Positions 31,627 through 62,016 of a DNA stretch of 64,000 nucleotides are shown here, piece after piece. Position 1 is the first letter of the stretch, and each line of letters opens with the position of its first letter. The notes beneath the pieces were generated by a model. That model saw only the letters and a program-made list of their open reading frames with translations, searched no databases and was not told the origin of the DNA. A program made the translations under genes and the position numbers. This DNA comes from a virus. Where the stretch lies: IMG/VR virus record IMGVR_UViG_3300036770_004732, positions 47,302 through 111,301 of that record; one strand, given 5' to 3'.

Positions 31627-32055
31627 TTATTGGTGCTTTTGTAGGTATTTAATCATTTCTTCTAAAAGATTTGCATTGTCTCCAACTTGACCCAGAACCA
31701 TATTACAATTTCTACAAAGCAATTGCCTAACTTTACCTGTCTTATGGTCGTGGTCTACACACAATTTCTTCCATTTACCATCACCTTCACCTTTACAAAT
31801 AGCACAAACTCCATTCTGGTTCTTATACATTTCCTGATGTTCTTGAAGAGTTATACCATAATTCCTCTTCAAGTCATTATTTCGTGTTCGTTCTGGATTT
31901 GCTTGATGTCTTGCTTTTACTCTTGCCTTATCACATTCTTTACAAGCAGAGTGCCTCCTACCTGTTTTCTTATCACGCATATAAAACTCTGTAATCTGCT
32001 TTTCAACACCACAGGTCATACAGGTTCTATACAGGTCGGAGTATAGTTTAGTCAT
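31627..32055 (-). CDS. Endonuclease VII-family free-standing homing endonuclease (F-CphI-like position)
   Basis: CAIC...VDHDHKTGKVRQLLCRNCN; N-terminal Zn finger; directly downstream of psbA; TATAAATA at 32080-32087. Confidence 0.85.
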   Translation of the reverse strand: MTKLYSDLYRTCMTCGVEKQITEFYMRDKKTGRRHSACKECDKARVKARHQANPERTRNNDLKRNYGITLQEHQEMYKNQNGVCAICKGEGDGKWKKLCVDHDHKTGKVRQLLCRNCNMVLGQVGDNANLLEEMIKYLQKHQ

Positions 32056-32122
32056 TTCGTGCTTTCTTTCGTGCTTAAATATTTATAAAAAAAGGAACTC
32101 CGAAGAGTTCCCCTTTATTATA

Positions 32123-35000
<2,878 letters not shown>

Positions 35001-56662: not shown

Positions 56663-58159
56663 TCAGAAAGTAAACTTCGCCTGAATTACACCACCAAAGT
56701 TATCGGTAGCATTACGGAAAGACTGGTTGTTGGAAACATAGAAGATCGCAGGAGTCACACTGATGTTGTCGCTCACACGATACTTATAGAATACTTCCCA
56801 CATCGTTGCGTTCGCAGGCAGTCCTTGAGCGTTGCCTGGTTGTCCCACAGCACCACCAAAAGAATTACCCTTTGCAAACACATCACTCCATTGAAGTCCA
56901 GTGAACCAAGACTGAGAGTTGGTAGCACCGTTTGCGTTAGGTAGAGGAGCACCACTCACATAGTTCCAACCATAAGCAGCAGAGATGGAAGGAACCCAAC
57001 CACTCTGCAGAGGTTGCCAGTAAGCATTCAGAGCATAACCATTTGAACCTTGTCCGTTGGTAAGAGCACCACTACCACCACCAAGAGCGTTGAAGGTGCG
57101 AACACGAGTGCCCCGAGTACCGTAACGATAACCGAAAGCAACACCCCAGTTAGGAGCTTTATAACCAATCTGAGCAAGAGTATTCAGTCCACCAGATTCA
57201 TTGAAGACACCAGTCTGACTGTTGTTACCGTTTTCGGCAACATAGTTCAAACCAGCAACGATTCCACCTTTCTTTCCAGGTTGAACATACTGAACGCCAA
57301 AACCAGCACCAGTTGCCTTGTTATAGACACCAGGAGCGCCAGCAACAGCAAAGAAGTCAAGAATTTCTGAGCGATATGCCGAAGGAATCCATGCCATCTC
57401 AGTGTTACGAACCAGAGCACCAGCAGTCAGAGTTACACCCTTGCTAACTGGGAACTGATAGTAAAGACGATCCAACCAAACATTGCTGTTAGTTCCAGTG
57501 CCTTGTGATTGTTCTGCCTTATCCAGTTTGAACAGAGAACGTGAAGAACCAAAAGGTTGAGCACTGAAGTTACCACTACGCAGACGGGTACGAAGCAAGT
57601 CCTTACCAGTGAACGAAGTATCAAAATTCAGACGGAGATCATAGTTGAAAGTTGTGTTTCCAGATTGGTTTCCGTTTGTGAGGTAAGCATTATTAACGCC
57701 ACCCAGAACAAAATTAACTTCACCTTTCAGTTTGGTTGTGGTGGAGAATTGTTGTGCTTCCAGAACACCAACTTTGGTTTCCAGACCATCAACACGACCT
57801 TTGAGAACTGCAAGTTCTGCTTGGAACTCGTTCATCAGACGACGAAGTTCATCGGTGACTTCAGAGACACGATCAAGGCAAGCATTCAAAAGTGCTGCTG
57901 CCTCAAAACGAGTCATTGCCTTACCACCACCAAAGGTGCCGTTAGGATAACCAGCAACGCAACCATAACGCTCTACGAGGTTGCTGAGTGCTTGATATGC
58001 CCAGTCGGTAGGACGAACATCAGAGAATTGAGTAATGCTTGTAACTTGACTCTCAGAGTATTGATTGACCGCACCCATATTAAGTTCTGCGGCATTCGCA
58101 GCAACAGGAGCAACCATACCCAGAGCAACAGGTGCAAGCATCAGTTGATTGAGTTTCAT
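56663..58159 (-). CDS. cyanobacterial outer-membrane porin (SomA/OprB-like with SLH domain)
   Basis: Signal peptide; QVTSITQFSDVRPTDWAYQAL..LVERYGC, FSTTTKL.GE and TSFTGKDLL motifs; terminal Phe. Confidence 0.93.
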   Translation of the reverse strand: MKLNQLMLAPVALGMVAPVAANAAELNMGAVNQYSESQVTSITQFSDVRPTDWAYQALSNLVERYGCVAGYPNGTFGGGKAMTRFEAAALLNACLDRVSEVTDELRRLMNEFQAELAVLKGRVDGLETKVGVLEAQQFSTTTKLKGEVNFVLGGVNNAYLTNGNQSGNTTFNYDLRLNFDTSFTGKDLLRTRLRSGNFSAQPFGSSRSLFKLDKAEQSQGTGTNSNVWLDRLYYQFPVSKGVTLTAGALVRNTEMAWIPSAYRSEILDFFAVAGAPGVYNKATGAGFGVQYVQPGKKGGIVAGLNYVAENGNNSQTGVFNESGGLNTLAQIGYKAPNWGVAFGYRYGTRGTRVRTFNALGGGSGALTNGQGSNGYALNAYWQPLQSGWVPSISAAYGWNYVSGAPLPNANGATNSQSWFTGLQWSDVFAKGNSFGGAVGQPGNAQGLPANATMWEVFYKYRVSDNISVTPAIFYVSNNQSFRNATDNFGGVIQAKFTF

Positions 58160-58789: not shown

Positions 58790-58828
58790 TCTATCACTTT
58801 TATATATTAGACTAATTTTGAGTTTATG

Positions 58829-59299
58829 TCAAGTCCAAAGATTATGGTCATATTCCCAATGACAGTTTGGACACAAAGGCATTATATTTTCTTTTGAATT
58901 TATAACACTAATCATAATATCTTCACTAAAAGAAGATATTGGTTTAATGTGAGCAATTTCTATATGTTTATTATAACCACACTTTGTACATTCAGTAAAT
59001 CCAAGTTTTTTAGCAAAAGATCTTGCTCGTGTTCTAACTAATGCGAAAGCAGAAGATCTATGATGTTTTTCATATATCGCTTCTCTAAGCGTCATATCTC
59101 TTACTTCTCTTTCTTTCATCCATAACAAATAATGTTCTTTACAGCGAGAACGATTTGCTGTTATTGCTTCTCCACAATCAATACATTTATGTTCTGGTTT
59201 TCTTTTTGGTGCTATTTTATTATTATATGAGGCAGCACAACTTCTCCCACAAAACTTTGGATTTTTTGTTTCTCCTTCACAGAATAAACATTTATTCAT
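58829..59299 (-). CDS. free-standing HNH endonuclease with N-terminal Zn fingers
   Basis: KFCGRSC and CTKCGY..EIAHIKP...NIMPLCPNCHWEYD motifs; TATAAATA at 59322-59329. Confidence 0.9.
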   Translation of the reverse strand: MNKCLFCEGETKNPKFCGRSCAASYNNKIAPKRKPEHKCIDCGEAITANRSRCKEHYLLWMKEREVRDMTLREAIYEKHHRSSAFALVRTRARSFAKKLGFTECTKCGYNKHIEIAHIKPISSFSEDIMISVINSKENIMPLCPNCHWEYDHNLWT

Positions 59300-59349
59300 A
59301 ATCGAACCTTTTAGTTATTATTATTTATAATACTCTAAGGTTCAAAAAG

Positions 59350-59625
59350 CGTCTCAGGAGGGACTCGAACCCCCGACCAACTGCTTAGCTTACCACTACG
59401 AATTTCTCCGCCATTTCTGTTTGTGGTCTGGACTTTCTCTTTACCATATCCCAAAGGACTTAGGCACTTCCCGTAAAGTCTCTACACCTTCATCTAACGA
59501 TGCTTGGCTCGGGATTGCCATTTTAAAGGGTTCCCCGAATTTGAGAAGTTACATTCATAAAGTTTCCTTTATGACGCTCCATTTATGTTTAAGGCAGATG
59601 CTCTATTCCACTGAGCTACTGAGAC
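59350..59625 (-). tRNA. tRNA-Arg(UCU), split: exons 59591-59625 and 59350-59388
   Basis: Exons (35 + 39 nt) rejoin to a cloverleaf: acceptor gtctcag/ctgagac, anticodon loop ct-T|CT-aa, T-loop ttcgagt. Confidence 0.9.
59389..59590 (-). mobile_element. group I intron (202 nt, ORF-less) in the tRNA-Arg anticodon
   Basis: Follows exon U, ends in G; core AAATTCGGGGAA, GGCAATCCCGAGCCAAGC, GTGTAGAGACT and AAGAGAAAGTCC. Confidence 0.9.
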
Positions 59626-59651
59626 AGTATGGAAGAACAAAATCTTCCAAG

Positions 59652-59723
59652 TAGGACTGGAGGGAATTGAACCCTCTTCACACCGTTATAAGCAGTGGGC
59701 CTTAACCAATAGGCGACAGTCCC
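59652..59723 (-). tRNA. tRNA-Ile(UAU)
   Basis: Cloverleaf; cactg-ct-TAT-aa-cggtg. Confidence 0.9.
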
Positions 59724-59809
59724 AGAGACCCTCCTGTTTGTGCTTCTATGAGAGGCATGGAGGGGGAGGGTCTTATGGAAGGGTTGGAACCTCGCCTGCC
59801 CATGAGAGT

Positions 59810-59838
59810 ATTATAAGGTGCTAGAACCTACCCGTCAA
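59810..59838 (-). promoter_or_regulatory. sigma70 promoter TTGACG-17-TATAAT
   Basis: Heads the Ile/Arg tRNA transcript. Confidence 0.7.
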
Positions 59839-60026
59839 GCCTTTGCTGCTTTACGAGCGTTCTTCTCCTCAGAAATCTCCAACCTACGCGCCTTGACGAG
59901 TTTTGAAAGTTCCTGAAGTGCTTTGCGTGCTCTTGTACCTGCGGCACTATTTCCACCTACAAACTTTTCATCTTCAGTTTGCCAAGTAGTTACCGCATCG
60001 GTGATTTGTTGTACTGTAGTAGACAT
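59835..60026 (-). CDS. histone H1-like (Hc1 family) protein
   Basis: KF..GNSAAGTRARKALQEL..L.K..R motif; GGAG RBS. Confidence 0.75.
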   Translation of the reverse strand: MSTTVQQITDAVTTWQTEDEKFVGGNSAAGTRARKALQELSKLVKARRLEISEEKNARKAAKA

Positions 60027-60067
60027 AATAATCTCCAAAAAATAAGATATGTTTATATATAACACTT

Positions 60068-60478
60068 TTAAAAACAATTTTCAACCCAAGGAGCACAAAT
60101 TCTCATTGGTGGTGCAAGTTTCTTACATTCTTCAGTATAACACAAAGTCTCATCGTTTCTTTCTTCTAGATATTTTTGTCTATGTTTTTTATCATAATCG
60201 GAAATAATCCGATTATATTCCGAATTTACATCACGAATTGCTCGATCAACATCCCTTTCAACTCTACGATTTATTTTGTTAGGATCTTTAAGTATAACTT
60301 CATTAATAATAGTTTGTGGGAAAAATTCTCTTTGAATTTCGTCCAGTAAGTCCCAAAGTGCATTTTCAGATACCTTAGTACATTGTGAAAGTGCTGCAAT
60401 AATAGTTGATAATATAATCCCTACAATTATAAGTTGTTTTTTATCTGGTTTTTTATTTCCAAACTTAAATTTAAACAT
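60068..60478 (-). CDS. membrane-anchored hypothetical protein
   Basis: N-terminal transmembrane helix; C-terminal Cys motif. Confidence 0.7.
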   Translation of the reverse strand: MFKFKFGNKKPDKKQLIIVGIILSTIIAALSQCTKVSENALWDLLDEIQREFFPQTIINEVILKDPNKINRRVERDVDRAIRDVNSEYNRIISDYDKKHRQKYLEERNDETLCYTEECKKLAPPMRICAPWVENCF

Positions 60479-61590: not shown

Positions 61591-62016
61591 ATGAGTTGGC
61601 AATACAATGGAGAAATCTTTACCGATGTTCCCAAAGGAATGGAAGGATTTGTTTATATTATTACCAACTTAACAAATAATAAAAAGTATATTGGTAAAAA
61701 ACATTTTTGGACAAGGCAAAAGAATAAAAAGACGGGAAGAAGAAAAACAGAAGAATCTGATTGGAAAAATTACTTTGGTTCTTGCGATGAACTTAATGAA
61801 GATGTAAAAAAAATAGGTAAAGAACATTTCCTTAGAGAAATTCTTTACCTGTGTCCTCATAAGAAATCTATGAGTTATTATGAAACTTATGAACAATTTA
61901 ACCGTAATGTATTAATGAGTGAAGAGTATTATAATACAAATATTGGTGGAACCTTTTATATGAGTGAATCTCAAAGAATTTATGGTGTGGTTCTTAAGTC
62001 TTCTAAGATTAGCTAA
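61591..62016 (+). CDS. GIY-YIG (Seg-like) nuclease family protein
   Basis: GFVYIITNLTNNKKYIGKK, YFGS, FLREIL and YYNTNI motifs. Confidence 0.85.
   Translation: MSWQYNGEIFTDVPKGMEGFVYIITNLTNNKKYIGKKHFWTRQKNKKTGRRKTEESDWKNYFGSCDELNEDVKKIGKEHFLREILYLCPHKKSMSYYETYEQFNRNVLMSEEYYNTNIGGTFYMSESQRIYGVVLKSSKIS

Follow-up and report, generated by a model that had tools for sequence, protein, structure and literature searches.

A phage tRNA-Arg(UCU) gene split by a group I intron of the Arg.3Ug class and followed by a free-standing HNH endonuclease gene

The tRNA-Arg(UCU) gene described here is interrupted after its wobble base by a 202-nt group I intron, and the gene for a free-standing HNH endonuclease lies immediately behind it. 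The locus is a phage member of the known Arg.3Ug class of tRNA introns; the intron type is catalogued in bacteria, and its phage setting is under-described. As an explanation of the whole arrangement (a functional split tRNA-Arg(UCU) gene, an Arg.3Ug intron without an ORF, and the adjacent HNH gene) we lean, with modest confidence, toward collaborative homing. The locus lies in a 64,000-nucleotide stretch of DNA, the whole of which was analyzed and is called the window below, from an IMG/VR viral contig of 111 kb (CheckV completeness 48%, GC 35%). Judged by its gene content, the source of this contig is a freshwater T4-like cyanophage: it carries wcaG and PhotoRC-II RNA motifs, a psbA gene, and a minus-strand tRNA cluster whose tRNAs match those of Synechococcus and Prochlorococcus myoviruses, and the DNA runs with a matching stretch have mainly freshwater and subsurface metagenome labels. 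The parts of the split gene and its upstream neighbor are as follows.

59651..59723, minus strand: tRNA-Ile(UAU), the next gene upstream of tRNA-Arg in the same tRNA cluster; absent in related locus L329
59591..59625, minus strand: tRNA-Arg(UCU) exon 1, 35 nt, 3' end CUGCCUU; acceptor 5' strand, D arm, anticodon stem 5' strand, and C32 U33 U34
59389..59590, minus strand: group I intron, IC3 tRNA type, 202 nt, AAACAU...GGUAAG
59350..59388, minus strand: tRNA-Arg(UCU) exon 2, 39 nt, 5' end CUAAGCAG; C35 U36 A37 A38, anticodon stem 3' strand, variable loop, T arm, acceptor 3' strand, and discriminator G

Several other features of the cluster and its surroundings may be recorded here. An Rfam abiF RNA motif (window 59728-59764, minus strand; 44.7 bits, cut-off 37) is the immediate upstream neighbor of tRNA-Ile(UAU); L329 and one RNA-library contig have the abiF hairpin directly upstream of tRNA-Arg, the tRNA-Ile gene being an indel there. 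A 498-aa ORF within the tRNA cluster (56663-58159, minus strand) has an SLH domain together with a porin domain of the OprB type, and is by appearance a phage-carried gene for a host-like outer-membrane porin. Just upstream of the cluster, an 80-aa ORF (59835-60077, minus strand) matches the histone H1-like protein Hc1 (Pfam 5e-15).

The junction is exact. Joined, the two exons form a 74-nt cloverleaf that ARAGORN reads as tRNA-Arg(tct), with the anticodon loop CU-UCU-AA, and 72 of the 74 nucleotides are identical to the uninterrupted, annotated tRNA-Arg gene of Synechococcus phage S-SZBM1. Because that homolog is continuous, the break can be placed uniquely between U34 and C35; when the junction is shifted by one base, the intron no longer ends in G and the joined exons mismatch the uninterrupted homolog. 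A preliminary description made from the bare sequence had proposed that a group I intron interrupts a phage tRNA-Arg(UCU) gene behind its wobble base, and its coordinates hold on the minus strand. With its intron search ARAGORN finds the split gene, as tRNA-Arg(tct) i(36,202), with the anticodon UCU restored across the junction; neither default ARAGORN nor the Rfam tRNA model detected it, so the same description was also right that such a gene is easy to miss. Standard tRNA finders and phage annotation overlook genes of this kind, and because the finders miss split genes this phage would be scored as lacking a tRNA for its commonest arginine codon.

The intron has the P1 through P9 helices and the P/Q/R/S core, all aligned by Rfam group I model RF00028 over 59407-59601 (64.6 bits, gathering threshold 50; E 4e-14). 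Its elements are listed below; the spans for P3, P4, P6a, P7, and P8 are short stretches that hold each strand plus a few neighboring bases.

59577-59580, minus strand: P1 guide GGAG
59555-59574, minus strand: P2 hairpin (two arms and loop)
59538-59548, minus strand: P3 5' strand
59531-59538, minus strand: P4 5' strand
59506-59514, minus strand: P4 3' strand
59491-59502, minus strand: P6a hairpin
59477-59485, minus strand: P7 5' strand
59463-59472, minus strand: P3 3' strand
59442-59466, minus strand: P8 hairpin
59430-59441, minus strand: P7 3' strand
59392-59427, minus strand: P9 domain (P9 arms around P9a and P9b)
59389, minus strand: intron terminal G (omega G), invariant in 18 aligned relatives

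A P1-P9 structure was drawn by hand on the window sequence and scored on an alignment of 18 related viral tRNA introns, where it puts 95.7% of the cells in standard pairs and shows compensatory changes at 33 of its 55 pairs. None of 500 shuffled controls reached any of these measures, and sliding the partners lowered pairing to 25-47%. Among the 18 introns P3, P4, P6, P7, and P8 are paired at 98-100%, P8a at 95.6%, and the innermost P6a pair at 64.7%; P2, P3, P6a, P8, P8a, P9a, and P9b covary, P4 does not vary at all, nor does most of P7. When the intron alone is folded without constraints, its minimum free energy structure regains P2-P6, P8, and P9 (z -2.55). The fold is thus far beyond chance. 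P1 has only three exon bases, C32 U33 U34, which pair with the G-A-G of GGAG and leave a U.G pair at the splice site; no relative has lost the U before the intron or the terminal G. Some relatives have the intron one base earlier, after CCU (U33), and in these the guide is GGGC, by its sequence a compensatory change of guide with site. Such introns are found in the tRNA-Arg(UCU) genes of IMG/VR loci L083, L091, L101, and L104 (CCU/...G/UCUAA, slashes marking the junctions). From these features the insert is a real group I intron of the self-splicing type, and splicing itself may be expected of it.

The exons also appear to encode a functional tRNA-Arg(UCU). Exon 1 is 97-100% identical to those of most related intron-bearing loci, 91-94% in L248 and L259, and 46% in L273, which has the same intron in a quite different tRNA-Arg body. 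Selection on the exons is observed in the T stem, where the substitutions that distinguish intron-bearing alleles compensate one another (GGGGG/CCCTC versus GCTGG/CCAGC), and selection for a working tRNA implies in turn that the intron is spliced. It could be argued that the split gene is dead, its intron no longer splicing or its exons decaying. This is very improbable: the core helices are all intact and carry compensatory changes, U-1 and the terminal G are retained in every relative, the exon cloverleaf is perfect with its T-stem changes compensated, and the lineage persists in 23 contigs from many different metagenomes.

Public RNA libraries were examined as assembled contigs. In run X15 a 153-nt contig is identical to the intron interior (59435-59587), for which DNA carry-over is possible. 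In one contig from run X16, 59388 abuts 59591, with exactly the intron skipped; the flanks of this contig do not match the window genome, and it may for that reason derive from the uninterrupted allele of another phage. Other RNA pieces match exon 2 only, are fused to a foreign exon 1 at high depth, and probably come from cellular tRNA-Arg.

The split gene is the only tRNA-Arg gene on the 111-kb contig, and AGA makes up 57% of the arginine codons in 57 long ORFs. It is therefore plausible, as the preliminary description had suggested, that AGA decoding depends on splicing. The same codon usage, the lone tRNA-Arg gene, and the high conservation of the intron could be taken to mean that the intron is kept mainly as a regulator, the efficiency of splicing (through GTP, Mg2+, or infection timing) gating tRNA-Arg(UCU) and with it the translation of AGA-rich genes. 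We consider that improbable. No regulation-specific feature was found, the same tRNA stands without interruption in over 100 related viral loci, so that the intron is dispensable, and its presence or absence tracks the nuclease gene and not gene content.

Introns of this family are not confined to the window. Scanning IMG/VR with a conserved 14-mer from the P4/P6 junction gave 120 places in 119 stretches, and tRNA halves surround the intron at 33 of the 120. The exact intron lineage is present in 23 viral contigs, and viral tRNA-Leu(UAA) introns are 75-78% identical to the tRNA-Arg intron. The split tRNA types seen in viral contigs are Arg-UCU, Arg-CCU, Leu-UAA, Phe, Lys, Thr, Gln, Tyr, and suppressor (UUA). 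Among the cultured phages in GenBank none was found with this intron in tRNA-Arg or with a close relative of the HNH gene; the nearest GenBank matches to the intron are the tRNA-Leu(UAA) intron of the 735-kb uncultured phage LR756501 and a sequence in Pelagibacter phage HTVC120P. The HTVC120P match (L002, 19615-19807) has a same-family core at 75% identity and lies between two ORFs that are both annotated as capsid protein; the major capsid gene of that phage probably contains a group I intron that its annotation lacks. Species-representative bacterial genomes were scanned with a 16-mer spanning the 3' junction, and each match was verified because about 280 chance 16-mer matches are expected in the collection. 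Among the 120 matches listed, at least 78 bacterial species genomes have an intron-split tRNA-Arg(tct); the matches span Bacillaceae, Gammaproteobacteria, and Bacteroidota.

The known types of bacterial tRNA introns have been enlarged from 4 to 21, with Arg.3Ug among them (Williams 2020, bioRxiv 10.1101/2020.01.27.920355). Given that preprint, the bacterial genomes, and the 23 viral contigs, to call an Arg(UCU) intron unusual, as had been done at the outset, overstated the case. As for phages, all of their group I introns known by 2014 were in protein genes, despite the many tRNA genes that phages carry (review PMC3984707). A literature search turned up no paper in which a phage tRNA gene is described as having a group I intron, although such an absence is not proof. 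The locus and its 23 viral relatives show that a bacterial tRNA-intron family also resides in phage tRNA clusters, a placement at odds with reviews that still confine phage group I introns to protein genes.

No ORF is present within the 202 nt of the intron. The nuclease gene lies outside the tRNA, in a cassette with the following parts.

58808..59346, minus strand: cassette with the free-standing HNH endonuclease gene; 539 bp, beginning 4 nt beyond the tRNA; indel in comparison with L329 and L323
59304..59343, minus strand: tRNA-HNH spacer hairpin, arms 59335-59343 and 59304-59314
59322-59329, minus strand: T4-late-promoter-like TATAAATA, within the spacer hairpin loop
58829..59299, minus strand: 156-aa HNH endonuclease ORF; two Cys clusters at the N-terminal end, HNH motif at the C-terminal end

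The cassette boundaries are sharp. Both L329 and L323 have the same intron-bearing tRNA (99% and 94% identity) and lack the cassette, and the blastn breakpoints (q414/q954) define a clean indel. The HNH ORF starts fifty nt after exon 2 and is recognized by Pfam (HNH_2 9e-8, HNH 1e-4) and by PHROG HNH families; a PDB sequence search gave marginal matches only (McrA-like HNH, E 0.6). Its dN/dS against relatives is 0.07-0.14 (dS 0.5-1.1), and 0.45 against the nearly identical L247; by this measure the protein is under purifying selection. The 3' arm of the spacer hairpin covers the Shine-Dalgarno sequence, and the arms are conserved and covary across HNH loci. Homing-endonuclease genes of T4 are expressed from late promoters and have masked ribosome sites, and by analogy the spacer hairpin may have a regulatory role. 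Distant homologs of the HNH protein occur in Felix O1 and Erwinia phage Ep030, behind tRNA-Lys and tRNA-Gln inside tRNA clusters, and the family is therefore associated with tRNA clusters generally. The window also contains a SegE-type GIY-YIG endonuclease gene (61591-62016, plus strand; Pfam 8e-39), relatives of which (40-48% identity) lie within a few hundred bases of an uninterrupted tRNA-Arg(UCU) gene in at least 65 of 120 viral loci. Since these GIY-YIG relatives crowd the tRNA region, it seems to be a general landing place for free-standing nucleases.

The distribution of the intron and the nuclease gene bears on how the two are related. A protein-guided scan found 76 viral loci with HNH relatives. 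Where the HNH protein is at least 79% identical and upstream sequence is available (28 loci), an intron-bearing tRNA-Arg(UCU) gene lies 44-48 nt upstream in 24. Two others, L264 and L265, have an intronless tRNA-Arg gene with another anticodon stem (ATTCTC-TTCTAAA-GAAT), and L269 and L272 have a tRNA-Arg-like gene with a 45-nt insert at the exact site of the intron. HNH genes that are 56-66% identical stand beside intronless tRNA-Arg genes with yet other stems, and those that are 62-71% identical follow tRNA-Ile, follow tRNA-Gln at 135-263 nt, or have no tRNA called upstream. Looked at from the side of the intron, the 23 contigs with this lineage lack the HNH gene only in L323 and L329. Among tRNA-Arg alleles with the same anticodon arm, every HNH carrier also has the intron: the uninterrupted allele with that arm is CTGCCTTCTAAGCAG, and an HNH gene beside the uninterrupted arm CATCTGCCTTCTAAGCAGTTGG was found at none of 120 viral loci, 104 of which have at least 600 bp of downstream sequence. 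Only the HNH gene with an intact arm of the same type is thus unseen among the four combinations of intron and HNH gene. This missing combination is what would be expected if the enzyme cuts the arm and the intron, or some other disruption, protects it.

The 45-nt insert of L269 (2333-2453; same sequence in L272) contains a T-arm-like hairpin within the anticodon loop, and the adjacent HNH protein is 81% identical. It is not a group I intron; ARAGORN reads the gene as having anticodon UCC and a 45-nt intron.

The pattern of co-occurrence is observed among these loci. There are only about three state changes on the HNH tree. Few independent events therefore underlie the co-occurrence, which simple linkage could account for, and with about three gains or losses no statistical claim of co-evolution is made; much of the pattern is probably due to linkage by descent. 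To judge from their alleles, the intron and the HNH gene are also clearly separable. The intron and its counterpart in L267/L069 are 99.5% identical, whereas the HNH genes 90 bp away have a dS of 0.89 and the spacer differs by 16%; such a near-identical intron next to a diverged HNH gene and spacer suggests recent conversion of the tRNA-intron segment, and the high conservation of the intron could come partly from structural constraint.

The low number of state changes is also one of the reasons for taking seriously a second account, in which the intron is self-splicing and the intron and HNH gene are independent selfish elements that share a recombination hot spot in the tRNA cluster. The HNH enzyme would then target its own intergenic site or another tRNA, and the intron would give no protection. 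The intron is indeed found without the HNH gene (L323 and L329) and the HNH gene without the intron beside other tRNAs, the Felix O1 and Ep030 homologs show a general association with tRNA clusters, and GIY-YIG genes crowd the region at intronless loci. Set against this are the total lack of the "forbidden" combination among the 104 intronless alleles when the other three combinations occur, the second, unrelated insert that occupies the identical site in L269 and L272, both of which have the HNH gene, and the constant spacing of intron and HNH gene in 24 loci. Independence of the two elements is a possibility of some weight that we nonetheless regard as doubtful.

The co-occurrence fits "collaborative," or trans, homing by analogy with the psbA intron of phage S-PM2 and its endonuclease F-CphI. 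Under collaborative homing, the split gene would be transcribed as part of the minus-strand tRNA cluster, and pairing of exon CUU with GAG of the guide would make up the 3-bp P1, its U.G wobble lying at the splice site. The chain would be attacked after U34 by free guanosine, the terminal G (59389) would dock, and ligation would produce the loop CU-UCU-AA, steps that are predicted from the behavior of the intron family. Because AGA is the main arginine codon, the phage would need the tRNA that results. The intron would be incapable of moving alone. The HNH enzyme would most likely cut the uninterrupted tRNA-Arg(UCU) genes of phages that infect the same cell, within the anticodon arm or close to it; the intron would spare the genome that encodes the enzyme, and in the course of repair the intron and nuclease gene would be copied together. 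Cleavage at the intron insertion site and protection of the phage's own genome by the intron are candidate functions that we infer from the alleles; free-standing endonucleases may cut away from the intron site, as MobE does (PMC2790892). It had also been proposed that the intron hides the anticodon site from nucleases. At the RNA level this has no support because the spliced tRNA would be ordinary, and at the DNA level it may be correct in another sense, as the intron probably interrupts the target of the neighboring HNH homing endonuclease.

A bolder form of the proposal is that this is the first collaborative-homing pair in a tRNA gene, in which the HNH enzyme cuts the anticodon arms of rivals (possibly also of the host) and the intron is the immunity element; we put it forward tentatively, as a reading that has a little under an even chance of being right. 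If it is true, the intron would be carried along into every genome that is cut, which would explain why self-splicing introns are in phage tRNA genes at all. The natural intron-only, HNH-only, and empty alleles offer a simple test bed for the mobilization of ORF-less introns, and the same alleles could tell whether introns act as immunity against homing endonucleases.

Among known systems, the closest to the intron is bacterial Arg.3Ug (Williams 2020; representative Rba190.Arg.3Ug). In both, tRNA-Arg is split after anticodon-loop nucleotide 3 (U34), ligation restores a canonical tRNA, P1 consists of exon CUU with the GAG of GGAG, and the intron is bounded by U-1 and a terminal G; in Rba190 the P1 5' strand is CUUC, that is, exon CUU plus the first intron base C. 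They also share the IC3-like core AAAUUCGGGGAA...AAUCCCGAGCCAAG...GUAGAGACU...AGUCC and the 3' end ACCAC...GUGGUAAG, the 3' junction being the one confirmed in the bacterial species genomes. The difference is that the bacterial introns have bacterial hosts and are 204-690 nt long, whereas the phage intron is 202 nt with an HNH gene behind it. The cyanobacterial and plastid tRNA-Leu(UAA) intron (the Anabaena type, "Leu.3Ug," IC3) likewise sits at position 34/35 with a 3-bp exon P1, in which CUU pairs with a GAG guide, and the same core, but it is in another tRNA and its guide is UGAG, as opposed to GGAG in the phage tRNA-Arg. Nor does the phage intron imply the ancient vertical history of the tRNA-Leu(UAA) intron; its presence varies among close phage relatives.

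The window's own psbA gene (31627-35000, minus strand) may be described at this point. It is split by three group I introns (Rfam 34618-34834, 32881-33119, and 32213-32478). Intron 1 carries a LAGLIDADG ORF (34118-34570) and intron 2 a 219-aa ORF (32972-33631) with a treble-clef/HNH-like end; intron 3 is ORF-less, with a free-standing Endonuclease VII (F-CphI-like) gene (31627-32055) behind it, which is the layout of collaborative homing in S-PM2.

T4 SegB is a GIY-YIG enzyme that promotes inheritance of a tRNA region, with no intron involved. It resembles the HNH gene of the window as a free-standing nuclease gene within the tRNA cluster of a T4-like phage, and differs in being GIY-YIG without an intron as opposed to HNH with one. 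SegB, a homing endonuclease with a free-standing gene among the tRNA genes of T4, is mentioned in PMC13096335. In the Synechocystis PCC 6803 tRNA-fMet gene (Bonocora and Shub 2001, cited in PMC3984707), the endonuclease I-Ssp6803I is encoded inside the intron, as in an autonomous mobile intron; the window intron contains no such ORF, its nuclease gene being outside the tRNA. T4 MobE provides an example of trans homing, with nrdB (PMC2790892), which the present layout resembles. The arrangement as a whole parallels the S-PM2 psbA intron with free-standing F-CphI, for which the term "collaborative homing" is used (Zeng, Bonocora and Shub 2009, as described in PMC6083498). Like that pair, the locus combines in a cyanomyovirus a group I intron without an ORF and an adjoining free-standing homing endonuclease gene beside the interrupted gene, and its distribution is consistent with an intron that shields the genome of the nuclease. 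The two differ in that the S-PM2 target is a protein gene and its enzyme Endo VII-like, whereas the locus described here pairs a tRNA gene with an HNH enzyme as its putative partner.
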